A stretch of 64,000 bases of DNA from Spirochaetia bacterium (GCA_024402405.1 JAKSTW010000004.1:6253-70252); one strand, 5' to 3'. Positions 3,595-57,709 are shown, counted from the first letter of the stretch. A program made the numbers and translations. The notes: generated by a model from the letters alone, not told the origin.

Positions 3595-4980
3595 TTATCT
3601 TCTTTTTTCAGAAAGCTTTCTGGTCAATATGAAGGCTGATGTTATGATAAGCATGGTGAATATGAAGGCGTCACGATGGGCATGCAAATATGCGCTGCTG
3701 TCTCCGGATGCCATATATACCTGTTCTCGTGCGGCTATTATGGCAGTACCTGTGGCTATGCCAAGACTCTGCCCGAAATTTCTAAGTGTGCCTATCATTG
3801 CAGAGGCTGTTCCTGCTGAACCCTCAGGGACTGAACATAGTATGCATGCATTGATGGCTGCTACGCTGAATCCGTTGCCTGTTCCTATGAGAAGCATGGC
3901 AATGGAAGCTGTCAGTTTTCCGTAATTTGCATCAGAAAGACATATGAGTATTATGCTGGCACATATTATTGCAAGACCGATGGATGCTGATTTTTTGGTG
4001 CCGAGCCTGTCAGACAATGTGCCGCCTACCGGTGAGAATATCATCATGGTGACAGGACTGAGGAGCATTATCATACCTGCTTCTGTAGCAGTGAGTCCCA
4101 GCACTTTTATCAGGAAGAATGGCATCAGATAGATCACTGACTGCTGTGTGAAATAAGAGCAGATGCACACTGCATTGGCATACGTAAAATCTTTTATCTT
4201 AAACAGTTTCAATGGAAGAAGATAAACCTGGGAATTGAGTTCTGTCCTGATGAACAAGACAAGGGATGCAGCTGCTATGACCATACATGAGAGAAATTTT
4301 ACTGAAAGTCCACCCCAGGAATTGCTGTTGTTCAGGGCTGTGATGAAAGTTCCTGTAAAGACAGCAAAAAATACAGTTCCCTTTGTATCTATTTTAACCT
4401 TTGTGCTTGTTTTGCTGTCAGCCGGAAGAACCAGCATTGCTGCTATGAAGCCTGCGATACAGAAAGGAATATTCACATAAAATATGGAATGCCATGAGAA
4501 GAAGTCGATGAGAAAGCCTCCGCAGGTAGGGCCGGCAGCCAGACCGATTGAGACAAACACTGAATTGATGCCTATAGCTTTGCCGCATTCTTCTCTGCCG
4601 AATGTTCTTTTCACTATGGCCTGTGTGATGGATACCAGTATGCTGTATCCCAGACCTTGAAGAGATCGGAACAGTATCAGAAGTCCAAGGTTCCGGGAAC
4701 ACAGAGGAGCCAGCCAGGAGACTGCACCGAACAATGCAAATCCGAACATGAACTGCTTCCTGTAACCAAGCATATCGCCAAGACGACCGAAAAACAGCAG
4801 GGTACAGCATGGAATCAGGTTATATAACAGAGACAGCCAGCTTACTGATGCCTGCGAAACGCCGAATTGGCTGGCGATTGTCGGCAATGCCAGATTCATG
4901 CTGTTTATAGAAAAACCTGCTATGAAATTAGCGGCGCCGACTACCCAGAATATAAGCCATTTGGAATTCTTTATTTCCAT
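3595..4980 (-). CDS. MFS transporter (DHA2-like, 14-TM)
   Basis: 461 aa, highly hydrophobic with repeated TM segments and an MFS motif GRLGDMLGYRK. Confidence 0.7.
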   Translation of the reverse strand: MEIKNSKWLIFWVVGAANFIAGFSINSMNLALPTIASQFGVSQASVSWLSLLYNLIPCCTLLFFGRLGDMLGYRKQFMFGFALFGAVSWLAPLCSRNLGLLILFRSLQGLGYSILVSITQAIVKRTFGREECGKAIGINSVFVSIGLAAGPTCGGFLIDFFSWHSIFYVNIPFCIAGFIAAMLVLPADSKTSTKVKIDTKGTVFFAVFTGTFITALNNSNSWGGLSVKFLSCMVIAAASLVLFIRTELNSQVYLLPLKLFKIKDFTYANAVCICSYFTQQSVIYLMPFFLIKVLGLTATEAGMIMLLSPVTMMIFSPVGGTLSDRLGTKKSASIGLAIICASIILICLSDANYGKLTASIAMLLIGTGNGFSVAAINACILCSVPEGSAGTASAMIGTLRNFGQSLGIATGTAIIAAREQVYMASGDSSAYLHAHRDAFIFTMLIITSAFILTRKLSEKRR

Positions 4981-5852
4981 CTTTTTTTGCCGACTTTGAC
5001 CATCATATCAAGCTTGACAGAATATGGGAAAGTTTCTTTTATCTCTCTCATGGCTGCTTTGCGTATCTTGCCTATCATCTCGCCGCCTTTGCCTATGAGA
5101 ATACGCTTCTGGCTTTCGGTATCTACTGTCAGAAATGCCCTGACCCATAGTCTTTCCATGCCGTTCTCTTCCTGCATCTCCATATCTGCTATTTCTACAG
5201 TGATACAGTGGGGGATCTCATCCTGTGTGCGGTTGATGACTTTTTCTCTTATTATCTCACTTATTCTGAAATCGACTTCCTGATCTGTGTAGTATTCCGG
5301 AGGATACATCATGGGACCTTCCGGAGCAATGTCGAACAATGCATCCAACAGCTGCTCGGTTCCCGAACCTGTTTTTGCCGATACTGAGAATATCTGTGAC
5401 GGCTCTGCATTCAGCGCTTCCTGAAAAAATACGGATCTGTCATGAACTGCATCAGCCGCTTTGTCTCCTGCCTCTTCCATGATGGTGTCCAGCTTGTTCA
5501 GAACGATCACCAGTTTTTTTCCTGCTTTCCCTATTATTTCTGCCAGGGCTTTCTCTTCCTTGCCGGGCTCACGGGTCATATCTGTGACATAAAGTATTAT
5601 ATCTGACTCATCTACAGCTGAGAGCATGATCTCCTGAAGCTCTATGTTGGATTTTTTTTCGCTGTCGTAATAACCCGGTGTATCCAGAAATACGAACTGT
5701 CCGCGGTCAGCAGTATATATGCCTCTGATCTTGTTTTTTGTGGTCTGTGGTGTGCGGGATACAATAGATACTTTGTGTCCGCAGATATAATTTATTAAGG
5801 TTGATTTTCCTGCAGAGGGTCTGCCTGCAACAGTTATAAAAGCTGATTTCAT
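4971..5852 (-). CDS. era: GTPase Era
   Basis: G1 GRPSAGKST, G3 DTPG, NKLD, and a C-terminal KH domain. ORF-track start at 5888 trimmed to the Met preceding AFITVAGRPSAGKS. Confidence 0.88.
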   Translation of the reverse strand: MKSAFITVAGRPSAGKSTLINYICGHKVSIVSRTPQTTKNKIRGIYTADRGQFVFLDTPGYYDSEKKSNIELQEIMLSAVDESDIILYVTDMTREPGKEEKALAEIIGKAGKKLVIVLNKLDTIMEEAGDKAADAVHDRSVFFQEALNAEPSQIFSVSAKTGSGTEQLLDALFDIAPEGPMMYPPEYYTDQEVDFRISEIIREKVINRTQDEIPHCITVEIADMEMQEENGMERLWVRAFLTVDTESQKRILIGKGGEMIGKIRKAAMREIKETFPYSVKLDMMVKVGKKRWK

Positions 5853-11189: not shown

Positions 11190-12251
11190 ATGACAGACAG
11201 GATGAAAGCTTGCAGAAAGTTGATGGTGGTTTTCTTTTTCCTGATTTTATGTGTCGCATCTTATTCCCAGGAAAATAAAACATCGGAGAATATGAAGAAA
11301 ATGGCAGAAAAATTAGGCGATGGAATTTATGCTGAGATGAGCACTGACAGGGGAGTGATCCTTCTGGCTCTGGAATATGAGAAAGTTCCTCTGACAGTCA
11401 TGAACTTTACAGGTCTTGCTGAGGGCAAGATCGATGGCGGTCAGGGAATCGGAACGCCTTTCTATGACGGACTGAAGTTCCACAGGGTCATTGATGAGTT
11501 CATGATCCAGGGTGGTGACCCAAGAGGAAATGGTACTGGCGGACCTGGATACAGTTTTCCTGATGAATTTGATGATTCACTGAAACACACCGGACCTGGA
11601 ATCCTTTCCATGGCCAACAGCGGTCCTGATACAAACGGAAGCCAGTTCTTCATCACACATGTGGAGACACCTTGGCTGGACGGACATCATGCAGTTTTCG
11701 GTCATGTGGTTGAGGGACAGGATGTGGTCAATGCCATCCGCCAGGGCGACAAGATCATTTCTGTGAAGATCATCAGAGTGGGTAAAAAGGCGGAGGAATT
11801 CAAGAATGACAACACCACATTCAAGGCAGAGCTGAAGGCTTATGCTGCAAAGGCTAAGGAAAGAGCTGCCGCAAAGCTTGCTGCTGACGAGAAATTCATT
11901 GAGAAGAAATGGCCTAATGCCATCAAGACCGAATCAGGTCTGAGATATATCGTGCAGAAACCTGGAAAAGGAACTGCATCTCCTAAAATGGGACAGCGTG
12001 TAGTGACACACTATCAGGGAAAACTTCTGGACGGACGTATGTTTGACAGCTCATACCAGAGAGGTCAGGCACTGGAGTTCTGTATCGGACAGGTTATTCC
12101 TGGCTGGAATGAGGCTCTTATGACCATGAAGAAAGGAGAGAAGAGAACTCTTATCATTCCTCCTGAACTTGGTTATGGCGAGAGAGGTGCAGGTGGAGTG
12201 ATTCCTCCTAATGCATATCTTGTATTTGAAGTTGAGCTGCTGGATTTCTGA
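11190..12251 (+). CDS. secreted peptidyl-prolyl cis-trans isomerase, cyclophilin-FKBP fusion
   Basis: 353 aa with signal peptide. N-terminal cyclophilin motifs ([31 protein letters not shown]) and a C-terminal FKBP domain ([13 protein letters not shown]...VIPGWNEAL). Confidence 0.8.
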
Positions 12252-12275
12252 ACCAGAGCTTGAATTTATATTTGA

Positions 12276-12303
12276 GGGCATCCTTATGGGATGCCTTTTT
12301 TTA
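12276..12303 (+). terminator. rho-independent terminator after the PPIase gene
   Basis: GGGCATCC-ttat-GGGATGCC hairpin followed by an 8-nt T-run. Confidence 0.55.
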
Positions 12304-12336
12304 TTGTATGTAATTTTTGTTTCACTAAAACAATAT

Positions 12337-12762
12337 ATGTATGGTATTGTGCCTGTTATAGCTACTATATATATGGTTGCTTTCGAAATTTATATTAAAT
12401 ATAATCATAAAGCTATGTGTAAATTCATTGGTATGGAATATTTTGCAGCTATAGCCATGGTTTCATTAAAAATGGAGGAAATTCCTTTAAAAATGTTAAA
12501 TGGGTATGGTATATCTGTAATGAAATCCTTTAAAGAGAATGATATAGAAGCGATAATTTTGTATTCAGAGAAATATATATCTAAATTAGTACGTGATTAT
12601 TCAGATTGTTTTGAATTGTCTAATGATGGAAAGTCTTTGAGAAAAATAGTTGATGATGATGTTCTTATTGAAAAGTTTTGGGCATATTTGTCTACTGATT
12701 TAATTCTTGCAATGATGAATACATTTAATAAGCAGCATAAAGTTATTAATGAAACCATTTAA
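12337..12762 (+). CDS. hypothetical small protein with hydrophobic N-terminus; first gene of the island operon
   Basis: The ORF-track start (12211) overlaps the upstream gene and its terminator. First in-frame ATG after the terminator is 12337 (MYGIVPVIATIYMVAFEIY...). Its 3' end overlaps the next gene by 14 nt, which suggests translational coupling. Confidence 0.35.
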   Translation: MYGIVPVIATIYMVAFEIYIKYNHKAMCKFIGMEYFAAIAMVSLKMEEIPLKMLNGYGISVMKSFKENDIEAIILYSEKYISKLVRDYSDCFELSNDGKSLRKIVDDDVLIEKFWAYLSTDLILAMMNTFNKQHKVINETI

Positions 12763-14488
12763 AATAAAAGATCCATTATATGGTTATATTGAAATAAAAG
12801 ATCCTGAAATTTGTGATATAATTAATTCGAGCCAATTTCACAGATTAAAACAAATAATTCAAACAAGCTATACATCTGTTTATCCATCAGCAACACACAA
12901 TAGGTTTATTCATTCTATTGGAGTTTATTATTTAGGTACTCTTGCTATTGAGTCATTAAAGATAGAATTAGAAAAATTAAATTGTTATAAAGAAGAAGAA
13001 TTAAAATCATATTATCAAATTTTTTTATTAGCCTGTTTGCTTCATGATGTGGGGCATTCTCCTTTTTCACATTCTGGAGAAAAATATTATATAAAAAAGA
13101 GAACAGAAAAGGGGATTCCTTGTATTTGGGAAAAACTTTTGGATGAATTAAAAGATGATGAATTTAATATCGATACAAGGGGAGAAATTCAAGGTGCAGA
13201 ACATGAAATAATGAGTTCCTTGTTAGCTATATCTCATTATCAAGAAATATTAAAAAAATATGATAAATCATTTTTTGTTAGGTGCATTATTGGTTTGAAA
13301 TATTCAAAAAATGATATTCGTAATTGTTTTATAGAACTGTTAAATTCAAATACAATTGATGTTGATAAATTGGATTATTTGCTTAGAGATAGTTTATATA
13401 CTGGATTTGCAACAGTTTCTATTGATTATAAGAGATTATTATCTTCTGTATGTATTATAACAGATAGAAATAATAAACCTAGTTTAGGTTTTACTAAAGC
13501 AGCATTAAGTACCCTTGAAAGTGTAATTTTAGCTCGCGATATGGAAAAGAAATGGATTCAAAATCATCCAGTAATTAAATATGAATCATTTCTTATTGAT
13601 CACATGATTTCAGCAGTAAATAAATATTATTCAGACTTGGGTATTGAAATTTTTAGCCTTGAAGCCCTAACTCCAGATGGAATTGCTTGTACGACAGGAA
13701 AATTTAAGACAAACAAATTGTCTGATACAGATATTGAAGTTATCAAGAAATGTAAACAAAATGAGCCATTAACTGAGACTGAAAAGATTGCTGAAAATAA
13801 TATTTTAAAAGAAATCATTGATGAAGAATGTTCAATTAAACTTTTATCTGATACAGATATAATAACAATTGCTAAAAACTGTATAAAAGACGATGAATGT
13901 GTAAAAGAATATTTTGATAGAAGCATACGAAAAAAAGCTTTATGGAAATCAGAAGCAGAGTATCTATTATACTTTAAATGTGGCATTATGAGTGAAAAAA
14001 CATTAGCTCAACTACAAGAAAAATTGTTTTCTATAGAAAATGAATTTAACACATTACAAAGTCCATTTATTAATAATAATTTGTTAGAGTATTTTAAAAA
14101 GGAATTGGAAAAAAATAATAAGCTTGTTTTTCTTAGGGAAGATGAAAAAAAGAAACGGGCTGACGAAATTAATAAAAAAATTCAATTAATACAATTTTTA
14201 AAAGAATACTCGAGGGATTGTAATGTTGATTTTAATTTTGCAATTATTTCTAGTGGGCAATTTAATACAGGATTTACCGAGATTGAATTTAAAAATATCC
14301 AAATTCGATTTGATGATGAACATATTGAACCACTTGAAAAAGTTGTACAATTGCTTGATTCAGAAAAGAAAAAGAATAAGTTCTTTTATTTATATGTAAA
14401 TTGTGCTGATATAAAAGGTAATAAAATTGACTTGAATAATTTTTTGACTGAGTTAAATGATTTTTGTGTGAGAAATCTGCTAGATTAA
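12749..14488 (+). CDS. SAMHD1/dGTPase-family HD-domain dNTP triphosphohydrolase with a roughly 300-aa C-terminal extension
   Basis: Motifs NRFIHSIGV, LLHDVGHSPFSH and DVDKLDYLLRD match the Dgt/SAMHD1 signature. C-terminal half is K/E-rich with an internal repeat (LSDTDIEVIKKCK / LSDTDIITIAKNCIK). Confidence 0.7.
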   Translation: MKPFKIKDPLYGYIEIKDPEICDIINSSQFHRLKQIIQTSYTSVYPSATHNRFIHSIGVYYLGTLAIESLKIELEKLNCYKEEELKSYYQIFLLACLLHDVGHSPFSHSGEKYYIKKRTEKGIPCIWEKLLDELKDDEFNIDTRGEIQGAEHEIMSSLLAISHYQEILKKYDKSFFVRCIIGLKYSKNDIRNCFIELLNSNTIDVDKLDYLLRDSLYTGFATVSIDYKRLLSSVCIITDRNNKPSLGFTKAALSTLESVILARDMEKKWIQNHPVIKYESFLIDHMISAVNKYYSDLGIEIFSLEALTPDGIACTTGKFKTNKLSDTDIEVIKKCKQNEPLTETEKIAENNILKEIIDEECSIKLLSDTDIITIAKNCIKDDECVKEYFDRSIRKKALWKSEAEYLLYFKCGIMSEKTLAQLQEKLFSIENEFNTLQSPFINNNLLEYFKKELEKNNKLVFLREDEKKKRADEINKKIQLIQFLKEYSRDCNVDFNFAIISSGQFNTGFTEIEFKNIQIRFDDEHIEPLEKVVQLLDSEKKKNKFFYLYVNCADIKGNKIDLNNFLTELNDFCVRNLLD

Positions 14489-14511
14489 ATTGGATTCAAT
14501 AGGGAGAAATT

Positions 14512-15234
14512 ATGCCAGCTGATATGAGACAATTGATAAATTGCCTTTCTGAAATGAAAAAAATATATCTGAATAATCCAACGGAAGCAGTGCGTGGGTC
14601 TAGTTTTATTTATAAATTGCATGAATATTGTGTAATGCAATTATATTCTGCAATAGATAATGCAAAAGATAAAGTGCAAATGATAAGGTTAAAAGATATG
14701 GCACAGCCTAGTGGTAAGCCACATTATCCTAGAACTTTAATTGAGCCTAATAAATATCAGCTTTTGCAGGAAGTAACATTATTTGGATCACATAAGAATA
14801 AGGATGAGGATATAGCTTTAATTCATTATGCAAATGGTCCTCAAATTGCTATTGGAATTAGAAGTCAGATGTCCTCTGTTGGAAAAAATATTGAGAATTA
14901 CTATGAGGGTATTATTGGTGAATGTATTTCACTCCATGATCGGTTTCCAATGGCAACTCTTGGATATGTCTATTTGTTGCCTAAAAATCCAATCAAACCT
15001 GGCCTGGCAGAAGAAATAGATTTAGTTCGAGCAGAAACACTGTTCAAAAAAATAATTGGTAGATTGGATTGGCATTCACCTAATGATAAATATGAACATT
15101 TTGCTTTCTTAAAAGTTGATTTTAAGCAAGATCCTCCTGCAATTATCCCTTCTGACCCAGCACTTAGTATTGAGACTTTTTTTGACCGGCTTATTGCAAC
15201 CCATAATGACAGAAATTTATATAATCAGCTTTGA
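14512..15234 (+). CDS. hypothetical protein (240 aa), third gene of the island operon; possible nuclease or effector
   Basis: Begins 23 nt after the HD gene. No recognisable motif. AT-rich codon usage matches the island. Confidence 0.4.
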   Translation: MPADMRQLINCLSEMKKIYLNNPTEAVRGSSFIYKLHEYCVMQLYSAIDNAKDKVQMIRLKDMAQPSGKPHYPRTLIEPNKYQLLQEVTLFGSHKNKDEDIALIHYANGPQIAIGIRSQMSSVGKNIENYYEGIIGECISLHDRFPMATLGYVYLLPKNPIKPGLAEEIDLVRAETLFKKIIGRLDWHSPNDKYEHFAFLKVDFKQDPPAIIPSDPALSIETFFDRLIATHNDRNLYNQL

Positions 15235-15242
15235 CAGAGTAA

Positions 15243-16853
15243 TTATAATATTTTCCGTCTTCTTTTGGGAATGCGCCAATTCCTTAGATTCTCAATTGAA
15301 TTTCTTATCTTGTCGATATTTTCATCTGATAAACCATATATTTCTTGCAGAACTATTTTATCACCTAATTTATAAGTAGCATCTATCCCATTTTCCAATA
15401 AACATTGATTAAGTTGATTATAAACCTTGGCAATTATATTATTTGGAATATCTTTTAATATTTTAATTTTGTCAATTTCTCCAGGAATTAAAACAAGGGT
15501 ACCTCCACCTAAAGAATGTACTAGTGTTTCAATTTGTAATAATGTTAAACTATTATACCATCTACAAATAATATTTTCTTTTGATATGCTATTATCTGTA
15601 ATAATTCCACTGAGCAGACTATTTGATACTAAAAATTTTGCTGAATTGCTTATGAGCCTGGGGATGTCTCCAAATACAGTTAATATTAAATCTGGTATTT
15701 CGATATTAGGGGTTATATACCATGGTGAACGTGAATTACATTTATATCCCTTATTAATTTCCATTTTTTCACCCTCTTTAATATATTGTTTCGTTCCTTC
15801 AGTCAGTAGCCTTGGATAAAAAAGAAAACTTTGGGGAATTATATTGGCGTTATCTACACCAATATGTGGATAAGAATTTATTTCCTTTGAATTTAATATG
15901 CTTGGAAGTAAATTTTGCGAAGAAATTTTATATTCTTGAATGGTTGTTATTGTAGGATGAAAATATTTTTTATTTCCACATACATAACCAATTTTAAATT
16001 TACATTCATTTTTTAATAAGTGGATTTCTTGATTGTTCTCTAAGCCTTGTATTAAATTTTGTGTATCTTCTGATAAGATTTTCTGTTCGAAAGGTTTTTC
16101 CATTTTTAATATCTCTGTTATTTTAATTGAAGCACTAATCATAGAAATATTATTGAACAAATCGCTGATATTGTTATAAATATTATAGTTAACAGAATTG
16201 CATTTTGCTCCTTTCTTATCTGCAAGAAATATTATTGTTTCTACATCAACTTCTGGAAAAAAATCATCATATAGCCGACAGATTGTTAATGATCCAAAAT
16301 TAACAGACAAATATTGCCAAAGGGGGAATGCATATCTTACATATGTCATTTCATAAGGCAAAACAAAGCCAAGTTTGCCATTTGTAGCTAACATCTCGCT
16401 TGCATGAACTACAAAAGGCATCCACAGGCTACCATTGCATGGGATATGGAGTTTATATTTTTTCATTATATTAAATATTTTTTTTTGATTATCATTGGTA
16501 AGATTTTTTAAACTTATGTATGGGGGATTTCCTATTATTGCATTTGGTTTTTTTTCTGGCCAGAAATCCAGATAATCAGAAAGGATGCCATGAATAATAT
16601 TATTTTTTGCCAAATATGAATTATATGGCTCAGATTGTAATTCAATACCTAATATTTGAGGGGAGGTGTTTCCAAAATTATTATAATATTTTATGGAGGC
16701 ATTAAGAAAACTACCGTCGCCAAATGATGGTTCTAATAATAATTCATTGCCAGTTTTTATTGCCCATCTTGCAATGTAATCAGCAATAGAAGAACATGTA
16801 TAAAAAGAGCCAGTTGCTTTTTTTGTTGATAGATTATTTTTTTTCATGCTCAT
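15243..16853 (-). CDS. N6-adenine DNA methyltransferase, gamma class (Type II/IIG-like) with C-terminal target-recognition region
   Basis: 536 aa. Motif X GSFYTC, motif I LEPSFGDGSFL, motif IV NPPY (IIGNPPYIS). Confidence 0.75.
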   Translation of the reverse strand: MSMKKNNLSTKKATGSFYTCSSIADYIARWAIKTGNELLLEPSFGDGSFLNASIKYYNNFGNTSPQILGIELQSEPYNSYLAKNNIIHGILSDYLDFWPEKKPNAIIGNPPYISLKNLTNDNQKKIFNIMKKYKLHIPCNGSLWMPFVVHASEMLATNGKLGFVLPYEMTYVRYAFPLWQYLSVNFGSLTICRLYDDFFPEVDVETIIFLADKKGAKCNSVNYNIYNNISDLFNNISMISASIKITEILKMEKPFEQKILSEDTQNLIQGLENNQEIHLLKNECKFKIGYVCGNKKYFHPTITTIQEYKISSQNLLPSILNSKEINSYPHIGVDNANIIPQSFLFYPRLLTEGTKQYIKEGEKMEINKGYKCNSRSPWYITPNIEIPDLILTVFGDIPRLISNSAKFLVSNSLLSGIITDNSISKENIICRWYNSLTLLQIETLVHSLGGGTLVLIPGEIDKIKILKDIPNNIIAKVYNQLNQCLLENGIDATYKLGDKIVLQEIYGLSDENIDKIRNSIENLRNWRIPKRRRKIL

Positions 16854-17178
16854 TATCTCGCTTTATATTGGTAGAAATAAAGACCTCTAAGAGTAATTTT
16901 ATAGTTTCCCTTTGCTCACCAGATAGATCATCGCAATTAATAATTATTCCATTAGCCTTTAAATATGAAGTTTTTATATCTGATAATCCAAGCAGATAAT
17001 CTGATGAAATATTAAAGTATTTGCAGATTAAAATTAAAATTTCTTGATTGGGAAATCGACTGTCAGATTCATATTGGGATATTGTTGCACAAGAAATTCC
17101 CAATATTTTGCCTAAATCAGTTTGCGACAGATTTGCTGTTTTCCTTAGAATTTTTAATCTTTCACCAAATATTTTCAT
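16834..17178 (-). CDS. XRE-family HTH transcriptional regulator (possible R-M controller)
   Basis: 114 aa. HTH QTDLGKILGISCATISQYESDSRFPN. Overlaps the methyltransferase start by 20 nt, so they are co-transcribed. Confidence 0.65.
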   Translation of the reverse strand: MKIFGERLKILRKTANLSQTDLGKILGISCATISQYESDSRFPNQEILILICKYFNISSDYLLGLSDIKTSYLKANGIIINCDDLSGEQRETIKLLLEVFISTNIKRDNEHEKK

Positions 17179-17270
17179 TTTAAATAAGAATAATACATAA
17201 TTTAACGAAATGCAATATTAATTTTGCATAATGAAAATAGATATGATTATTTGTTAACGACAAATATAAT

Positions 17271-46883: not shown

Positions 46884-47657
46884 GTGTTTAATTCTCAAAA
46901 AAAAATTAATATCAGAGCTCCCAGAATAGAAGCCAGACGGCGGAGGGAGCTTTTATTATTTCAGAGTCAGGTTGGCCTGAAATTTAAAAACCTTGATTTA
47001 TTGAATCTCGCATTCTGTCATCGTTCTTATGTCAATGAGAGCAATGAGGATATCGACAACAATGAGAAGCTGGAATTTCTTGGCGATTCTGTGCTGGGCA
47101 TGGTTGTCAGTGAATATCTTTATAATTTTCTCATGGGCAAGGCAGAGGGAGAGCTGGCCCGTGTCAAATCATTTGTCGTCAGCGAGAATACTCTCAGTAA
47201 AATTGCAAAAGTCATAAGAATCGATAATTTTATTCTCATTGGAAAAGGTGAGGAATATTCTGGCGGACGAGAGAAGAAGGCCATCCTTGCGGATTGTATG
47301 GAGGCTATGTTCGGTGCATATTACCTGGATTCCGGACTGAAGCCTGTGAAAGAGTTCATACTGAGCTATCTGGTTCCTGAGATCATGTGTGTCATTGAAA
47401 ACAAGCACGAGAAAGATTATAAGACACTTCTTCAGGAATTTGTCCAGAAAAAATATAAGACATGTCCGAAATATAAGATGATCAAGAAGACTGGTCCTGA
47501 TCATGACCGTACATTTGTGGTTGAGGTTCATATAAAGGATGATGTGTTCGGACCTGGTGAAGGAAAAAATAAAAAGGCTGCTGAGCAGAGTGCTGCTGCC
47601 ATAGCTTATAAAGAATATATAAAAGTCACATCCACTGAAAATTCTGAAAAAGAGTAA
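46884..47657 (+). CDS. rnc: ribonuclease III
   Basis: EKLEFLGDSVL signature and a C-terminal dsRBD. Begins 6 nt after acpP. Confidence 0.85.
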   Translation: MFNSQKKINIRAPRIEARRRRELLLFQSQVGLKFKNLDLLNLAFCHRSYVNESNEDIDNNEKLEFLGDSVLGMVVSEYLYNFLMGKAEGELARVKSFVVSENTLSKIAKVIRIDNFILIGKGEEYSGGREKKAILADCMEAMFGAYYLDSGLKPVKEFILSYLVPEIMCVIENKHEKDYKTLLQEFVQKKYKTCPKYKMIKKTGPDHDRTFVVEVHIKDDVFGPGEGKNKKAAEQSAAAIAYKEYIKVTSTENSEKE

Positions 47658-48959
47658 CTATTCCTTATGAAAATTTCTGGCCGGAGGCATTCTTTTCTCA
47701 AGTTCTGCCATCTGACCAGCGACTTTTTTGATCTCGTCCCTTAGAATAAAGATACAGTCTGTTTTATGTGCTTTTCCGGTTACAATATCCTCTGCCAGTG
47801 AATGACAGTTAGGTGCCCCGCAGGAACCGCAGTCCAATCCCGGAAGCATGGAATCTATTTTCTCGATCTCATCCATCATCTGCAATGCCTCAGAAACATC
47901 CTCGCTGAGCTTGAGGATCGGACGTGAGTAGATCTCTTTTGTCCAGGAGATATCAAAACCAGGATTCAGATTGATATCTTCCTCATTATTTTTCAGTGGC
48001 ACCGAAGCAACCAGTCTTTTTACTCTGGATCTGGCTATGTAAGGATTCTCTACCGTGAGAGTACCACCCACACATCCTCCTGGACATGCCATGGCTTCTA
48101 TGAAATCTATATGATGGAAATCCTCATTTTCAATCTGCTCCAGCACTTTTATCACATGCTCTATGCCATCTACTGCTATGCTCTTTGGAGATCTGACAGC
48201 TTCACTCTCGCCGTCACTGTGGGCCCAGCGTATTCCGGTACCGGATGCTTTGGAAAGCTTTTCAGGCTTGTCGATTGTTTTGATCAGCCTGTGCATTGCC
48301 GGAAAAATATCTTTCTGTGCTATTACCCCATCAACTGCTGACTGCTCATTTCCCAGAGGAGATCTGACACTGGTGATCTTTGCAGGACATGGAGATATGA
48401 AAAACACACCTATATTCTTCTTATCCGGATAAAGTTGTTTTTTTACTATTCTGGCGGCGATTTCCATCGGAGTCTGAAGCTTTATGACGTGTTCAATAAG
48501 GCTTGGAAATCTTACCTGGATAAGTCTGACTACTGCAGGACATGAAGATGATATAAGAGGCCGAGGATAATTTCCCTTTTTTATAAGATCTGCTGTAGCC
48601 TGAGATGCTATCTCTGCCGCACTGGCAACTTCATATACATCATCAAAGCCGAGCTTTTTCAATGCTGTCAGGATCACGTCTGTCGGTGTGTTCTTGAATT
48701 GACCATATAGACTTGGAGCTGGAATTGCCACTTTGAAATCATAATTTCTGATTATGTCCAGTGGATCACTGACTGCTTTTTTTGCATGGGAAGGGCATTT
48801 TCTGATACATTCACCGCAGTCGATGCAACGTTCTGTAATGATCATGGCCTTTGCATCTCTTACTCTTATAGCCTCAGTAGGACATTTTGAAATGCAGTTT
48901 GTGCATCCTTTGCATAGTGTTTTATCCAAGGTAACAGAGTGAAAGTATTCTCTTGCCAT
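47658..48959 (-). CDS. [FeFe]-hydrogenase-like protein, non-canonical (putative sensory/regulatory class), with N-terminal 2[4Fe-4S] and C-terminal RnfB-like Cys motif
   Basis: CKGCTNCISKCP and CIDCGECIRKCP ferredoxin motifs. H-cluster-like motifs SSSCPAV (L1), SPCPAK (L2) and EAMACPGGCVGG (L3). C-terminal DCGSCGAPNCHSLAEDIV. Confidence 0.7.
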   Translation of the reverse strand: MAREYFHSVTLDKTLCKGCTNCISKCPTEAIRVRDAKAMIITERCIDCGECIRKCPSHAKKAVSDPLDIIRNYDFKVAIPAPSLYGQFKNTPTDVILTALKKLGFDDVYEVASAAEIASQATADLIKKGNYPRPLISSSCPAVVRLIQVRFPSLIEHVIKLQTPMEIAARIVKKQLYPDKKNIGVFFISPCPAKITSVRSPLGNEQSAVDGVIAQKDIFPAMHRLIKTIDKPEKLSKASGTGIRWAHSDGESEAVRSPKSIAVDGIEHVIKVLEQIENEDFHHIDFIEAMACPGGCVGGTLTVENPYIARSRVKRLVASVPLKNNEEDINLNPGFDISWTKEIYSRPILKLSEDVSEALQMMDEIEKIDSMLPGLDCGSCGAPNCHSLAEDIVTGKAHKTDCIFILRDEIKKVAGQMAELEKRMPPARNFHKE

Positions 48960-48963
48960 TATA

Positions 48964-49377
48964 TCATCCTAATTTTTCTATGATTTTTACTGTGGTTCCT
49001 TTTCCCGGAACAGAATTTATTTCCATCTCGTCTGAATTGCGTTTTATGTTTGGAAGTCCCATTCCCGCTCCGAATCCCATTTCTCTGATGGCATCAGTGG
49101 CTGTTGAATATCCTTCCTGCATGGCAAGTCCTATGTCTGCTATGCCGGGACCGTGATCGACCAGTATACATATTATGTTTTCTGGAGTGATGTCGATAGT
49201 TATATTACCGCCGCCGCCATGGATTACCATGTTGATCTCAGCCTCATATAATGCTATGACTGTTTTTTTTATTATAGAGTTGTCGACCCCAATCTGCTGG
49301 AGCTTTTTCTTTAATGTGCTGGAGGCGATGCCAGCCAGATCCATGTCATTTCCAGGTATGGAAAAATTCAACTGCAT
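48964..49377 (-). CDS. GHKL-family ATPase / RsbW-SpoIIAB-like anti-sigma-factor serine kinase
   Basis: 137 aa. N-box EAEINMVIHG, G1 DHGPGI, G2 GFGAGMGL. 4 nt from both neighbours. Confidence 0.7.
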   Translation of the reverse strand: MQLNFSIPGNDMDLAGIASSTLKKKLQQIGVDNSIIKKTVIALYEAEINMVIHGGGGNITIDITPENIICILVDHGPGIADIGLAMQEGYSTATDAIREMGFGAGMGLPNIKRNSDEMEINSVPGKGTTVKIIEKLG

Positions 49378-49381
49378 AAAA

Positions 49382-50566
49382 TCACCATCTAAAATTCATA
49401 ACTGGCGGATATGCTTTCTTTACAGATAAGAACAGAAAAAATCCGCCTGCGGCCCCAACTGCGTTCTGCAGTATATTCATCGGAATTTCTGAAATTGCGG
49501 CTCCTGGTCCCACGATGAAATATCCTGTAAAAAAATATCCTGCTACCATTATAACAGCTCCTGCAAAGAAAACAAGAAATTTTGATAAAAATAGTGAAAT
49601 TTTATTCATGTTCCTGTTGAAGATATTGAATGTGAACCCGATTGCAAATCCCTGCAGTCCATGTATCAGCAGTGAGAATAATGCCCACTGGGAATATCCG
49701 CTGAGTATGTCTGCGATTGCTGTCCCTAATCCTCCTGCTATAAAACCGGCGGCAGGACCGAATGTGATGGCTGAGAAAAATATTGCCATATCACCGAAAT
49801 TCAGGTATCCCCTTGTGGGTCCTATTGGAATTCGTATGAGTATGGTCATGACCACGACTATTGCTGTGAGTATGGCAGAAGCTGCGATTCTGAACGAAAA
49901 GGTCTTCATTGCTGCATTGCCTGTTTTTCTTCCGGTCTGATTTCTGATGCCTCGTGTCTCCAGTGCCATTGCCAGAGTCGGAATATTTTTTATTGCCTGT
50001 ATCAGTACTGAGGCCAGGATCGGAAGGGTGCTTCTGAACCTGCCGATGAAATTCCATCTGCCTGGATCAGCGCAGCCCTCTGTCTTTCTCATTTTATGTG
50101 CATTTTCTGTATTTCTGTATATCCTGATAAGGTAGGGAATATATCTGGATGCAATCGATATTGTAAGTGCAAATTTGAACGGTAGGCCGAAAAAACGTAA
50201 TGTCTGGATGAAGACATCCTGCGATGTTGTTCTGAAATAAAGATAAAAGAGGGCAGTGATCCCGAAAAACCGTATTATGATCCTTGATGTCTCATACAGA
50301 CCTGTCTGTGTCAGCCATATGAAATTACCGGTCTGTATTACCGGTGTTCCGCTGCGGAAAAAAAGCGGGGTAAGGACAGCTGTCAGAATCACCAGTGGAA
50401 GTATTGCTCTGAATATCTTCAGGAAATCTTTCCAGCCGCATATGCTGATGCCTGCCGGTAACAGAGGCAGAAACAGCAGCAGATAGTGAAGCGGGGAAAA
50501 AAAAAAAAAAAAAAGAACAGAGTACAATATGAGAAAAATAAATTTAAGTCTCGGATCTGTTCTCAA
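49382..50566 (-). CDS. ECF transporter transmembrane protein: EcfT(CbiQ)-like N-terminal part fused in-frame to an S-component-like C-terminal part
   Basis: N-terminal about 225 aa has EcfT features (ASRYIP..., ALETRGI). C-terminal about 170 aa is a 5-6-TM S-component-like module (MKTFSFRIAASAILTAIVVV...). Apparent TTG start. Contains an 18-nt T-run at 50497-50514. Confidence 0.55.
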   Translation of the reverse strand: MRTDPRLKFIFLILYSVLFFFFFSPLHYLLLFLPLLPAGISICGWKDFLKIFRAILPLVILTAVLTPLFFRSGTPVIQTGNFIWLTQTGLYETSRIIIRFFGITALFYLYFRTTSQDVFIQTLRFFGLPFKFALTISIASRYIPYLIRIYRNTENAHKMRKTEGCADPGRWNFIGRFRSTLPILASVLIQAIKNIPTLAMALETRGIRNQTGRKTGNAAMKTFSFRIAASAILTAIVVVMTILIRIPIGPTRGYLNFGDMAIFFSAITFGPAAGFIAGGLGTAIADILSGYSQWALFSLLIHGLQGFAIGFTFNIFNRNMNKISLFLSKFLVFFAGAVIMVAGYFFTGYFIVGPGAAISEIPMNILQNAVGAAGGFFLFLSVKKAYPPVMNFRW

Positions 50567-52047
50567 AGGATCTCTCCTGGCAGAAAAGAATAATTTAATA
50601 TATTTTCCAGTTTGTCACCCGGTTCCTCAAATTTACCGTTGTTCATGAAATATATGGAATCTGCATTGGATACAGCCAGTTTGAAGTCATGTGTTATTAT
50701 CATGATGGCCGGATCTTTGTCGGAATTTCTGAACTGCCTGATGATGTTTGTGTATTCTGTAAAGGAAATCCCTGAATCTGCCTCATCTATGATTATTATA
50801 TCTTTGTTCAGCAAGTAATAGATCGCTGCCTGCAGTTTCTTCTTCTGACCATAACTCATAAGTACCGGTGATGCGGTCACAGATTCTATGCCGAAAATTT
50901 TTACAGCATCGGATATCTGTTCCGGATCAGTGCTTTTATTTCTGAGCTTCAGGCCATATTCCAGTTCCTCCTGTACAGTGGGAAGAAAAAGCTGGTAATC
51001 CGGATTCTGGAAGAGATATGATACATTTCTGTTCAGTTTGCCCGGATCTGTTTCTTTTCCCATAAAGCTTATTTTGCCTGCTGATGGGATCAGAAGTCCT
51101 GCTATGAGTTTTGATAATGTGGATTTTCCGCATCCGTTGGTACCTATTACCGCAGTAGTTTTTCCTCTGTGCAGAGAAAAATCCTCTATTTCAATGCTGA
51201 ATTTGGAATCTGGATAGGCGAATTTTATATTCTGAAGTCTGATGACAGGATCGCATTCCGGTTTCTTCAGGAATTTATCTCGCAATACCGATATCTCAGG
51301 CATGTGAAGATTTATGAACAGTCCAAGTTCCGATGCTCTTTCATATAGTTTATTGTCAGCCGGCTGAAAATGTTCTATGGTGCCGTGGCTGAATATAAAA
51401 AAATCAGAGGCAAATTCCCTATATATATCCAGCATTTTAGATGTCAGTATAAGAACAGTTTTTCCTGAGCTTTTAAGTGTCTCCAGAATTTCTTTTCTGG
51501 CATAAATATCTATTTCTTCCAGTGTCTCATCCAGTATCCACAGCTGAGGATCCACTGCATGCAATACGGCCAGCATAAGTCGGCGTTTCTGTCCGCCTGA
51601 AAGGCTGCTTGGAACCTGTTCCCTGAGTTCTTCTATATGCATCTTCGATAATGCATTCTGTACTTTCGTGCTGATTTCTTCTGGCGGGAGTTCCATATTC
51701 TCCAGCGGAAAACTGATTTCTTTTTCTGCAGTAGAGCATATTATCTGTTCATCCGGATTCTGAAATACGATTCCGACTTTGTTCAGCATATCTGAGCTGT
51801 GTAATTCTGTGAGTTCTGCATCATCCAGTCTGATGCTGCCTGAGAGTGTGCCTCCGGTATATGACGGAACCAGGGATGTTATTATTCTGGATAATGTTGT
51901 TTTACCGCTTCCGGGAGGAGCCAGAAAAACAGACACAGTGCCTTTCTGCAGGGAAAAAGAGAGAGAATCAAACAGTAACGGGCTTTCCAGTCCCTGATAA
52001 GATGGATATCTGAATGACAGATTATTTACTGAAAAATATACCGGCAT
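50563..52047 (-). CDS. ECF/CbiO-type ABC ATPase, duplicated (A-A' fusion)
   Basis: Two ABC domains. Walker A APPGSGKTT and GTNGCGKST. Signatures LSGGQKRRL and MSYGQKKKL. Stop overlaps the next gene's start. Confidence 0.75.
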   Translation of the reverse strand: MPVYFSVNNLSFRYPSYQGLESPLLFDSLSFSLQKGTVSVFLAPPGSGKTTLSRIITSLVPSYTGGTLSGSIRLDDAELTELHSSDMLNKVGIVFQNPDEQIICSTAEKEISFPLENMELPPEEISTKVQNALSKMHIEELREQVPSSLSGGQKRRLMLAVLHAVDPQLWILDETLEEIDIYARKEILETLKSSGKTVLILTSKMLDIYREFASDFFIFSHGTIEHFQPADNKLYERASELGLFINLHMPEISVLRDKFLKKPECDPVIRLQNIKFAYPDSKFSIEIEDFSLHRGKTTAVIGTNGCGKSTLSKLIAGLLIPSAGKISFMGKETDPGKLNRNVSYLFQNPDYQLFLPTVQEELEYGLKLRNKSTDPEQISDAVKIFGIESVTASPVLMSYGQKKKLQAAIYYLLNKDIIIIDEADSGISFTEYTNIIRQFRNSDKDPAIMIITHDFKLAVSNADSIYFMNNGKFEEPGDKLENILNYSFLPGEIL

Positions 52048-52109
52048 GGTTCTCTGAAAGAAAAAAAGTCTCCCTGACGGGAGACTTCAAAATCATAAGA
52101 TTTTTATGA

Positions 52110-52283
52110 TCAGTCAGCAAGAATAGCATCTGCTGGGCATGCGTCCTTGCAAGTACCGCAAGAAATGCATTTTGCAGCGTCAATTGCTCTCTTTCCGTCT
52201 TTTTCGCTGATAGCTTCGTTTGGACATTCACCCTCACAAGCACCGCAGTTCAGACATTCATCTGCCTTAATTGAATAAGCCAT
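52110..52283 (-). CDS. 2[4Fe-4S] clostridial-type ferredoxin (57 aa; not in ORF track)
   Basis: Hand translation MAYSIKADECLNCGACEGECPNEAISEKDGKRAIDAAKCISCGTCKDACPADAILAD. Two Cx2Cx2Cx3CP motifs. GAGGAG RBS 7 nt upstream. Confidence 0.8.
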   Translation of the reverse strand: MAYSIKADECLNCGACEGECPNEAISEKDGKRAIDAAKCISCGTCKDACPADAILAD

Positions 52284-52313
52284 AACTGTCTCCTCATTAA
52301 TTTTGTTTTTACT

Positions 52314-52341
52314 ATTCTACACTATAGGTTATTTTTGTCAA
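52314..52341 (-). promoter_or_regulatory. sigma-70-like promoter (TTGACA-16-TAGAAT) for the ferredoxin-ECF-kinase-hydrogenase-like operon
   Basis: Minus-strand TTGACA (52336-41) and TAGAAT (52314-19), about 25 nt upstream of the ferredoxin ATG. Confidence 0.4.
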
Positions 52342-52545: not shown

Positions 52546-52632
52546 TTATTTCTTATGTCTGTTCTTTCTCAGTTGTTTCTTTCTTTTATGAGTTGCAATT
52601 TTATGTCTTTTCCGTTTTCTTCCGCAAGGCAC
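52546..52632 (-). CDS. candidate small ORF encoding a 28-aa highly basic peptide (VPCGRKRKRHKIATHKRKKQLRKNRHKK)
   Basis: GGAG 7 nt upstream of a GTG start. Ends about 30 nt before the minus-strand terminator at 52483-52512. Not in ORF track (<60 aa). Confidence 0.3.
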   Translation of the reverse strand: MPCGRKRKRHKIATHKRKKQLRKNRHKK

Positions 52633-54774: not shown

Positions 54775-55305
54775 TCAGTGGCAGTGTCCGCAGTCGCATC
54801 CATCATCGTGGCAGTCATCACAGCCACAGTCGCATTCATATTCGATATCGCCTCTCTCGATTTCCTCAGGAGTTGCATCTCTGACGTCAAGGATTTTGAT
54901 GTCAAAATCCAGATCCAGGTCTGCATAAGGATGGTTTCCATCCAGTTTGACCTGTCCATCTTTTATCTCTACTACCTCGAATACGATTTCTTCCTCTGAG
55001 TCATCATCACTTGGCATGAGGATCTGCTGGCCGACTTCCGGCTTGTCCTCACCGAACTCCTCAATATGAAATGAGACCACCAGAGTGTCATCATATTCTC
55101 CGAATGCATCTTCCATCTTGATGAATGTCTTCACCGTATCTCCAGGTTCCTTGCCTTCCAGTGCTGCTTCCAGTGCAGGAAGAAAATTACCATAACCATG
55201 AAGGTAACAGCTGGTACCCTGTTCTTTTGTATCTTCCAGTATGTTGCCTTTGCCGTCTTTAAGAATGCAGTCAAAAGTGACGACCTTGTCTTTTTCTATT
55301 TTCAT
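54775..55305 (-). CDS. slyD: FKBP-type peptidyl-prolyl isomerase SlyD with Cys/His-rich metal-binding tail
   Basis: FKBP and IF domain, plus C-terminal tail CDCGCDDCHDDGCDCGHCH. Confidence 0.78.
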   Translation of the reverse strand: MKIEKDKVVTFDCILKDGKGNILEDTKEQGTSCYLHGYGNFLPALEAALEGKEPGDTVKTFIKMEDAFGEYDDTLVVSFHIEEFGEDKPEVGQQILMPSDDDSEEEIVFEVVEIKDGQVKLDGNHPYADLDLDFDIKILDVRDATPEEIERGDIEYECDCGCDDCHDDGCDCGHCH

Positions 55306-56023: not shown

Positions 56024-57709
56024 TTATTTCCTTAAATTAACATCATATATACTATAACCTAAAAATTCCCTCAGGATTGAATCAAATGGAACCAATATTG
56101 AAGGCATTCTCAGAAAGTTCTTAAGCAGATACTGCAGTCTTCTGGCAGTCATATATTCTGGCTGATCTGGTTTGACGGACATGAGCAGAGGAGTTGCTAT
56201 TGGTCCCAGGATGGCAAGCTCGTAATCAAGAGCTGAGTTGAATGCCATATCTGCATTACTCTGGAATGGGAAGATATTCTTGTCCTCTCCCTTCCTGACT
56301 GCTTCCCACATAGAAAGTGTTGTAGTGGCAGAATTGCCTCTGGTCTTATAGTCTCTGACCAGACGGCGTATAAGTCTGTTGTCTGTGGTATGGATCCTGT
56401 TGTGGTCATCCAGATTCAGCTGTGTCAATGCTGATATATAGATCTTGAATTTGTTTTCTTTCGGAATATTATAAGTGAGTTTATCATTCAGGCCGTGGAT
56501 GCCTTCAACCAGCAGGATCGAGTTTGGCTCTGCCTTCAGCCTGGTACCCTTGTATTCTCTCAGACCTGTGATAAAGTTATAGGTAGGAATATTTATCTCT
56601 TTACCTTTGAAGAAATTATTAAGATCTTTGTTCAGCAGTTCTATATCTATGGCTTCTATGCATTCAAAATCATAATTGCCGTTCTCATCTTTAGGTGTCT
56701 CCAGCTTTGGAACAAAATAGTCATCCAGAGAAAGCTGCTGTGGCTTGAAACCCAGTATCTGAAGCTGTGTGGAGAGCCTCTTGATGAAGGTTGTCTTTCC
56801 GGAAGATGAAGGCCCGGCTATCATTATGACTTTGACTGTGCCTTTTCTTGAATATATCTCTTCCGCAATGATGGCGATCTTTTTTGTCTGCAGCACCTCA
56901 CTCATAAGGATGATATCTCTTTCATGACCTGCAGCGATATGAGCGTTTAACTCGCCTACATTGCTGAAATTCTGTAAGGTCGCTCTCATTCTGTATTCCT
57001 TGAAAATGGATGTAAGTACCGGAATATCCTTGAAAATAGGAATTTTATCTATGGTTCCTTCTTTTGGAAACTGAACCAGAAAACCAATATTGTAGCACAT
57101 GAATTTATAATGAGACAGATATTTGGTGGATGGAATCATAGGACCATGGGCTAGGTCAGAGTAATTCCTGCATTTTGAAATACGGATTATAGGTGAATTT
57201 GTATATTGCAGAAGCATGGCCGCACCATCTATTTTCTGGGTCCTGAAAAGTTCTTCAGCTTCAGAATAGGCAAGCTGAGACTGAATTATCGGCTCGTCTT
57301 TTTCTACTATTTCTGAAAATTTCTCATCAAGAAGCGACAGGTCATCAGCACTTACATCCATGATATGTTCAAAATAAAAAGTATAGCAGTCGCCTATGGT
57401 GTTGCCCACTATGAGCTTACGGTCCGGAAACACCTCTTTTGCCACCATTGCCAGTATGAAACAGAATGTGTGCCTGTATATATCGCTTCCGATCTTTGAA
57501 TCAAGATAGATTGGTTCCACAACAGAGTTTACGATCAGCCGGTAATGGATTCCTCCCGGTATATTGTTTATTTTTATACCTACCAGAGTGCGGTCCTTGT
57601 CAATTATGTTCAGTCCTTTCGCCGCATCGATGGCTTTTATTCCCAATGTGAATTTCTTTGAATTTCCATTTATATCCGAAACTGTAATTTCTTTTAATAA
57701 ATCAGACAT
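56024..57709 (-). CDS. uridine kinase / phosphoribulokinase-family kinase fused to ThrRS-like N-terminal (TGS-type) domains
   Basis: P-loop IAGPSSSGKTTF in the C-terminal half. About 270-aa N-terminal extension. Confidence 0.6.
   Translation of the reverse strand: MSDLLKEITVSDINGNSKKFTLGIKAIDAAKGLNIIDKDRTLVGIKINNIPGGIHYRLIVNSVVEPIYLDSKIGSDIYRHTFCFILAMVAKEVFPDRKLIVGNTIGDCYTFYFEHIMDVSADDLSLLDEKFSEIVEKDEPIIQSQLAYSEAEELFRTQKIDGAAMLLQYTNSPIIRISKCRNYSDLAHGPMIPSTKYLSHYKFMCYNIGFLVQFPKEGTIDKIPIFKDIPVLTSIFKEYRMRATLQNFSNVGELNAHIAAGHERDIILMSEVLQTKKIAIIAEEIYSRKGTVKVIMIAGPSSSGKTTFIKRLSTQLQILGFKPQQLSLDDYFVPKLETPKDENGNYDFECIEAIDIELLNKDLNNFFKGKEINIPTYNFITGLREYKGTRLKAEPNSILLVEGIHGLNDKLTYNIPKENKFKIYISALTQLNLDDHNRIHTTDNRLIRRLVRDYKTRGNSATTTLSMWEAVRKGEDKNIFPFQSNADMAFNSALDYELAILGPIATPLLMSVKPDQPEYMTARRLQYLLKNFLRMPSILVPFDSILREFLGYSIYDVNLRK

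Follow-up and report, generated by a model that had tools for sequence, protein, structure and literature searches.

An ECF importer and a putative group D sensory [FeFe]-hydrogenase share a conserved operon in one clade of Spirochaetia

Putative sensory [FeFe]-hydrogenases owe their presumed sensory role to their domain content and to the genes that surround them (PMC8163306, PMC8924675). For group D (M2e) the reference is TamHydS of the firmicute Thermoanaerobacter mathranii, whose study defines the group by two N-terminal [4Fe-4S] motifs, four Cys ligands in the H-domain, no Cys at the CpI-299 position, a Ser or Thr at the M353 position, the C-terminal motif Cx2Cx4Cx16C and the lack of a PAS domain, and whose gene adjoins one for a histidine kinase-like ATPase (PMC8163306). 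Here we describe a spirochaete relative of this hydrogenase-kinase pair that is encoded together with an energy-coupling factor (ECF) importer. The locus, at 47658-52341, lies in a stretch of 64,000 nt from a Spirochaetia bacterium (GCA_024402405.1 JAKSTW010000004.1:6253-70252), which we call the window. The novelty lies in the union of importer and pair in a single operon, conserved within one spirochaete clade; the pair itself is already known, and the transporter is ordinary for its class, save for a strain-specific fusion of two of its subunits.

In a previous reading of the window from its sequence alone (the sequence-only reading), five genes, running from a ferredoxin gene to the gene for the hydrogenase-like protein, hydS, had been taken as one tightly coupled operon. 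Our listing of open reading frames (ORFs), together with Pfam and NCBIfam, bears out that all five lie on the minus strand and encode what had been named, and the spacings hold as well: ecfAA' and ecfT/S overlap by 4 nt, 4-nt gaps separate ecfT/S from the kinase gene and the kinase gene from hydS, and 62 nt lie between the ferredoxin gene and ecfAA'. Four of the five form a translationally coupled operon, ecfAA', ecfT/S, kinase and hydS, which stands behind a separate ferredoxin gene:

50563..52047, minus strand: fused ECF ATPase EcfA-EcfA', 494 aa (two ABC_tran domains; TIGR04520/TIGR04521, E = 1e-80 and 1e-73)
49382..50566, minus strand: in-frame ecfT/S fusion, 394 aa (CbiQ at residues 2-207, PF07155 at residues 226-384)
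48964..49377, minus strand: RsbW/SpoIIAB-type serine kinase of the GHKL fold, 137 aa (HATPase_c_2, E = 9e-9; HATPase_c also matched)
47658..48959, minus strand: HydS, putative sensory [FeFe]-hydrogenase of group D (M2e), 433 aa (two Fer4, Fe_hyd_lg_C and PF04060)

The four-gene order is not peculiar to this genome. It recurs in about ten Spirochaetia lineages (the window, L001/L088/L089, L090, L002, L003, L004/L081/L082, L085, L086, L087 and L092), and on this point the proposal that these genes belong together stands. In L002, L003 and L092 the block reads EcfAA'-T-S-kinase-HydS; it is preceded by fabD-fabG-fabF and followed by CNNM in L004/L081/L082, L085 and L086, and lies between a cyclase gene and CNNM in L087. 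In L090 the genes for a response-regulator PP2C phosphatase and a STAS protein come first and a convergent rnc comes last, an order that L001/L088/L089 resemble, without S. The flanks therefore vary (fabDGF, cyclase, PP2C-STAS or ferredoxin upstream; CNNM or rnc downstream), and the junction between the last ECF gene (S or T) and the kinase gene ranges from an 11-nt overlap to a 16-nt gap throughout the clade. Pairwise identities of HydS, the kinase, AA', T and S all yield the same two subclades. The block thus dates back to their common ancestor and has passed down by vertical descent, during which the ECF proteins evolved about twice as fast. Only in the window's own clade (HydS 63-82% identical) do ECF genes precede the pair. 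In the literature that we searched, no ECF transporter is described in linkage with partner-switching proteins or with a sensory hydrogenase, and within that scope the linkage was rightly called undescribed.

Each partner is also found by itself. At its locus L091, a sister of L088 with 86% identity in HydS, encodes PP2C-STAS-kinase-HydS but lacks ECF genes, and more than 70 loci encode the kinase-HydS pair without ECF genes. Conversely, L093, L172 and L173 encode more distant EcfAA'-T-S of the same subfamily and lack the pair. In neighbouring lineages neither partner needs the other. A scan of metagenomes with the EcfAA' alignment added only two close relatives, L092 and L093, the remaining matches being generic ECF ATPases of at most 30% identity.

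The fifth gene stands apart. According to the sequence-only reading, the 62-nt gap behind the ferredoxin gene held no terminator; this is contradicted by a strong intrinsic terminator at 52088-52055. The single five-gene operon thus holds for its four-gene part, which recurs in relatives, and fails for the ferredoxin gene. The signals and genes that bound the operon are the following:

52314..52341, minus strand: sigma-70-type promoter-like site TTGACA-16-TAGAAT upstream of the ferredoxin gene, matching at 11/12 positions
52110..52283, minus strand: clostridial-type 2x[4Fe-4S] ferredoxin, 57 aa (Fer4, E = 7e-15)
52055..52088, minus strand: intrinsic terminator in the ferredoxin-ecfAA' gap, with a 10-bp stem, a GUCA loop and a U7 tract
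46884..47657, plus strand: rnc (RNase III), convergent, the 3' boundary of the unit, its stop codon abutting that of hydS

The ferredoxin matches NF058577 FdxA_fam in NCBIfam (73.6 bits against a cut-off of 65). Its terminator hairpin, GAAGUCUCCC-GUCA-GGGAGACUUU followed by U7 (52088-52065 plus tail), folds at -16.2 kcal/mol on its own, and folding of the whole 62-nt gap against shuffled controls gives z = -3.6; about 8 nt separate the terminator end from the ATG of ecfAA'. The same hairpin is kept in L174, an independent Logan assembly that is 99.3% identical to the window (72 mismatches in 10.77 kb), with a tract longer by one U. Moreover, among the roughly 90 related loci examined, none has a ferredoxin gene ahead of the block. 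Its own promoter, the strong terminator and its absence beside the block in relatives place the ferredoxin gene outside the tight operon, as a separate cistron.

The promoter that had been named ahead of the ferredoxin gene is present (52341-52314) and is the top-scoring promoter-like site in a 6.4-kb scan, which found no further such site between it and the ecfAA' start and none near the 3' end of ecfT/S that could serve as an internal promoter ahead of the kinase gene. Promoter-like and terminator-like sites across the region occur at chance level (15 found against 17.3 expected, and 7 against 5.1), so only the strongest individual sites are informative. The ribosome-binding site of ecfAA' is weak. 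A search of the window and four relatives at gathering thresholds turned up no riboswitch ahead of the ECF genes; the sole signal, a sub-threshold Phe-leader match, overlaps the ferredoxin terminator. The operon has no recognisable promoter of its own and would probably be transcribed only through read-through of that terminator. At its other end rnc closes the unit, as had been supposed, the two stop codons abutting at 47657/47658; a convergent rnc beside hydS is also found in L088, L090, L091 and L174.

By sequence, HydS agrees with the published description of group D at every defining feature, down to the kinase gene next door (PMC8163306). Besides the two Fer4 domains, Pfam matches include Fer4_10, Fe_hyd_lg_C (E = 4.5e-39) and PF04060 (E = 5e-12), and the scan returned no PAS domain. 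The Cys of the N-terminal clusters (C16/19/22/26 and C45/48/51/55), the H-cluster ligands C140, C191, C292 and C296, which align with the ligands of the Desulfovibrio enzyme, and the C-terminal Cx2Cx4Cx16C (C377/380/385/402) are all invariant in 18 homologues. Aligned to the Desulfovibrio enzyme, HydS has SSSCP for TSCCP, the proton-relay Cys (CpI C299) being replaced by Ser139 with the ligand Cys140 kept, and SPCPAK for MPCIAK, where the M353 equivalent is Ser189; its EAMACPGGC motif is intact. HydS and TamHydS, compared here by their described features, differ at M497, which is Leu in TamHydS and Met in the window HydS, and their settings differ as well: an AraC regulator and a group A hydrogenase are the neighbours in the firmicute, an ECF transporter and rnc in the spirochaete. 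A Thermoanaerobacteraceae homologue, L046, is 53% identical in HydS and has the same neighbours. A search of the PDB yielded no solved group D structure, the best matches of HydS being group A enzymes.

Since the H-cluster and accessory ligands are kept and the proton-relay Cys is lost, HydS would be suited, by extension from the TamHydS work, to reporting H2 or redox state rather than to turning over, and it is putatively built for that role. In this it is like the group C HydS proteins of Thermotoga maritima and Ruminococcus albus, which are low-turnover, lack the proton-relay Cys and are tied to protein phosphorylation. However, the group C proteins have a PAS domain and neighbouring genes for a Ser/Thr kinase and a phosphatase, while the window HydS lacks PAS, carries other active-site substitutions and is accompanied by a small RsbW-type kinase encoded separately.

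That kinase belongs with HydS far beyond the spirochaetes. Its best NCBIfam model is SpoIIAB (E = 1e-13; 51 bits, under the cut-off of 135), and the motifs EAEINMVIH (N-box), DHGPG (G1) and GFGAGMG (G2) can be recognised by eye in its sequence. We retrieved 80 genome loci that encode HydS relatives. Each has a homologue of the kinase gene upstream of hydS, on one strand with it and immediately adjoining in 79/80. Thus the pair is a known and very widespread two-gene module; the identities given to its members by the sequence-only reading are correct, and the pair by itself is not new, as it is the described group D HydS module.

Most of the HydS loci are from Firmicutes (Clostridia), where the pair is embedded in a DRTGG-kinase-HydS-DRTGG-PHP cluster that is usually followed or preceded by NuoE-HATPase-NuoF-HydA, a HydABC-type hydrogenase. 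Compared with this cluster (C. thermocellum, L083), the window kinase is 57% identical to its partner kinase in C. thermocellum, HydS is about 55% identical, and the kinase gene is likewise immediately 5' of hydS with the same spacing. The window differs in that no homologues of DRTGG or PHP, nor of HydA, NuoE or NuoF, occur within its 64 kb; in the corresponding places the sister lineages have STAS and PP2C. In more distant spirochaetes, whose HydS is about 55% identical, the pair occurs by itself among unrelated genes, for instance those for a receiver domain, SpoU, enolase or LysO exporters. The clade therefore shows the group D pair outside its usual Firmicute hydrogenase operon. About 4 kb upstream of the block and on the same strand, the window also encodes a 561-aa protein of the uridine-kinase/PRK family (56024-57709, minus strand), which is 43% identical over 515 aa to the product of the gene that immediately precedes DRTGG-kinase-HydS in C. 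thermocellum; 15 Firmicute loci have a member of this family upstream of the pair, and its presence here may reflect ancient synteny or a functional connection.

Also new is that, in this clade, STAS and PP2C take the place of the Firmicute DRTGG and PHP partners. In L088, L090 and L091 the operon is headed by genes for a response-regulator PP2C phosphatase and a STAS protein, the latter with a DS[ST] phosphorylation motif (FLDST). Together with the GHKL serine kinase, which has the size and motifs of SpoIIAB, these loci recall the RsbU-RsbV-RsbW and SpoIIE-SpoIIAA-SpoIIAB systems. They depart from them in that no sigma factor is encoded among the five window genes or in the operons of relatives, in that the putative input is a hydrogenase-like protein, and in that the window itself lacks STAS and PP2C: a tblastn search with the sister-lineage proteins found no homologue of either in the 64 kb, and its genome has lost both genes from the locus. 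The PP2C and STAS content and the FLDST motif point to partner switching, which we infer to be the likely circuit. In such a circuit, the state of HydS would set the activity or the binding of the kinase, the kinase would phosphorylate the STAS protein, and the PP2C phosphatase would reverse this. The sister lineages thus offer a concrete path from HydS through the kinase to STAS phosphorylation, with the ECF importer as one candidate output.

Whether the importer is that output is the main question raised by this locus. The sequence-only reading had proposed either H2- or redox-gated uptake or the supply of a cofactor to the sensor, and nothing beyond co-transcription backs these proposals. 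On balance we consider it somewhat more likely than not that the ECF genes are transcribed together with those of the sensor pair but that the sensor does not act on the transporter: co-expression and not control. In this account, ecfAA' and ecfT/S would specify an ECF importer peculiar to Spirochaetia, whose substrate is probably of the vitamin B6 type, and what links it to the sensor would be a common transcription that has been handed down vertically since the ancestor of a small clade.

Several observations weigh against co-expression alone. The junctions of at most 16 nt have been kept while the ECF proteins diverged to 45-50% identity and the flanks changed, and hitch-hiking by itself seldom leads to such persistence. 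The ECF genes of L090 and L088 are placed inside the signalling module, between the STAS and kinase genes, the STAS gene overlapping ecfAA' by 22 nt in L090 and lying 4 nt from it in L088; a STAS gene that overlaps or abuts ecfAA' would fit a direct functional tie. Transport genes of other kinds (CNNM/CorC, LysO) recur beside the pair in other spirochaetes. In addition, the terminator read-through through which the operon would be transcribed is inferred, and neither a STAS gene, whose product would be the candidate substrate of the kinase, nor a PP2C gene occurs in the 64 kb.

The same observations on gene order, on the conserved block with its congruent divergence and on neighbouring transporters favour an alternative in which the ECF transporter is a regulated output: either the STAS protein in its unphosphorylated form or the kinase, working as an anti-factor, would bind EcfAA', and uptake would be gated by the H2 or redox state that HydS reads. 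The absence of a sigma factor from the operon is consistent with it as well, as partner-switching modules with non-sigma targets have been documented (PMC13555669, PMC8256260). This alternative has to accommodate L091, which keeps PP2C-STAS-kinase-HydS with no ECF genes at the locus; the window, which has the ECF genes, kinase and HydS and neither STAS nor PP2C; and the occurrence of the same ECF subfamily alone elsewhere. We looked for a feature of EcfAA' that would be particular to the sensor-linked clade and rejected the one candidate. EcfAA' has one degenerate ATP site, as the H-loop of its first nucleotide-binding domain has no His (LILTSK) and the signature of the second reads MSYGQ, the two belonging to one composite site; these motifs are kept within the clade and are equally present in stand-alone relatives, which makes them a trait of the subfamily and not an adaptation to the sensor. 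We therefore treat control of the transporter as possible but doubtful, and the specific version in which the importer is built into a PP2C-STAS-kinase-HydS partner-switching circuit for H2 or redox, with EcfAA' as the switch target, as unlikely.

A precedent of a sort exists. MlaB, a STAS protein, binds the ABC ATPase MlaF in the MlaFEDB complex. MlaFEDB thus resembles the present case in that a STAS protein regulates an ABC ATPase, and in L088 and L090 the STAS gene abuts ecfAA'; it differs in belonging to another ABC family and in having no kinase or phosphatase, and here the likeness is one of genes only. If the transporter were the target, H2 or redox sensing would be tied to micronutrient uptake in gut and rumen spirochaetes, and the locus would provide the first case of an ECF transporter gated post-translationally and, for a group D sensory [FeFe]-hydrogenase, the first physiological output. 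If it is not the target, as the co-expression view has it, a natural experiment remains, with lineages that have or lack the ECF genes, S, or STAS and PP2C. In both cases the locus is a tractable route to what group D sensory hydrogenases signal to.

The importer of the window has a peculiarity that relatives do not share. Its T part (about residues 1-215, nt 49922-50566) and its S part (about residues 221-394, nt 49382-49906) are joined in one frame, and PF12822 was also matched among the ECF membrane components. Compared with the separate T and S of relatives, the fusion is an in-frame deletion that has removed the last transmembrane helix of T, which all relatives have, and the first residues of S, so that about 15 residues join the ETRG coupling helix to the first transmembrane helix of S. 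There is no other T-S fusion among 44 T matches or 120 S matches, all of the latter being 150-215 aa long, and no protein matches both halves in the best 150 of 1.84 billion representatives; among word-index matches, only the identical protein of the NCBI metagenome-assembled genome bears both domains. By these searches the fusion appears unique to this strain. In ECF structures both the coupling helix of T and the N-terminus of S are cytoplasmic, and the topology of a fusion that links one to the other is plausible.

The second assembly, L174, has the same layout, ferredoxin-terminator-ecfAA'-T/S-kinase-hydS-rnc, with a T/S gene of identical length (394 aa, 4435-5619), which shows that the arrangement is not an accident of assembly. 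Between the two, hydS differs at 12 synonymous codons and 1 nonsynonymous codon and ecfAA' at 4 and 1, a pattern that speaks for purifying selection on both genes. The T/S gene has 8 nonsynonymous codons and 1 synonymous one (against hydS, Fisher p ~2e-4). Three of these eight differences (3/8) fall in an 18-T homopolymer on the minus strand within ecfT/S (50497-50514), which codes FFFFF in the window; L174 has a mixed sequence there that codes FFLPL, the family consensus. The tract is either an assembly artefact or prone to slippage, and the excess of nonsynonymous change in T/S may reflect relaxed constraint or a sequencing artefact in the window.

These features could also mean that the unit is a decaying remnant in this genome, its original head (PP2C, STAS and promoter) and the T helix lost, and that it is silent behind the terminator. 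The absence of a promoter-like site between the terminator and the ecfAA' ATG, the weak ribosome-binding site, the loss of the PP2C and STAS genes that L088, L090 and L091 retain, the unique fusion and the skewed T/S substitutions with their homopolymer would all fit. However, none of the four ORFs is broken across 4.4 kb in either of two assemblies with 0.7% sequence difference, the differences in hydS and ecfAA' are mostly synonymous, the fusion has a plausible topology, and a leaky terminator after a highly expressed ferredoxin gene could yield enough transcript. We consider decay improbable.

As to what the importer carries, the sequence-only reading had suggested assigning the S-component family by profile search and predicting the substrate from it. 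The family could be assigned, as PF07155; the prediction did not follow, as no NCBIfam equivalog was reached and the source databases give only a generic name. The sole PDB match of the S part is chain S of 4HZU (E = 3e-20), HmpT/PdxU2 of Lactobacillus brevis, which has been shown to carry pyridoxamine (PMC4860826, PMC9997740). ECF-HmpT/PdxU2 (PMC4860826) and the window importer share the Pfam family of S, a CbiQ-type T with the ASR.../ETRG coupling-helix motifs and two ABC ATPase domains; in the window, A and A' are fused with one ATP site degenerate, and T and S are fused minus the last T helix. In two outgroup loci, L093 and L173, the gene after S encodes a YggS-type protein (Ala_racemase_N, about 235 aa), YggS acting in the homeostasis of pyridoxal phosphate. 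The likeness of S to PdxU2/HmpT and the position of YggS point weakly to a B6 vitamer as the substrate.

Such a substrate, together with the conserved co-transcription, is what could be said for a transporter that supplies a cofactor or precursor to the sensor or to hydrogen metabolism, the genes being co-expressed for supply. We consider this very unlikely: HydS has Fe-S clusters and the H-cluster as its cofactors, and no ECF-supplied vitamin is known to serve them, the pair does without ECF genes in most of its loci, as given above, and L088 has lost S and L091 the entire transporter while both kept the sensor.

Some further genes recur around the block or the pair. In the second subclade (L002-L004, L082 and L085-L087) a CNNM/CorC-type gene directly follows hydS, with a 4-nt overlap in L087, and in the more distant lineages L011 and L017 (11.3-12.4 kb) split LysO exporters lie directly downstream of the pair. 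A class III nucleotide cyclase gene is found upstream of the block in L082, L085 and L086 (at 1-3 kb), with fabD-fabG-fabF in between, and the cyclase gene of L087 (2579-4612) overlaps ecfAA' directly. At the other end of the window's block, rnc on the plus strand and hydS on the minus strand meet stop codon to stop codon (47655-47660). Neither gene has a terminator, and in L091 the two genes are convergent with a 14-nt overlap. Overlapping rnc and hydS transcripts would form double-stranded RNA, a substrate of RNase III, beside the RNase III gene.

Elsewhere in the window, a 28-aa Arg/Lys-rich ORF, MPCGRKRKRHKIATHKRKKQLRKNRHKK, lies at 52546-52632 on the minus strand, with a promoter-like TTGACG-17-CATAAT (52691-52663), a good ribosome-binding site and a terminator at 52512-52493. 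It has no match in Pfam or NCBIfam, and we presume that its product resembles small basic ribosome-associated proteins. The stretch at about 12200-17200 is low in GC (29%, compared with about 44% elsewhere) and is probably an acquired restriction-modification or defence island: it carries genes for an HD-domain protein, an Eco57I-like N6 DNA methylase and an HTH protein, as well as two ORFs that belong to no family. Finally, at 54775-55305 on the minus strand lies the gene for a SlyD-like FKBP isomerase whose C-terminal tail is rich in Cys, His and Asp (CDCGCDDCHDDGCDCGHCH); in SlyD, a tail of this type binds metal.

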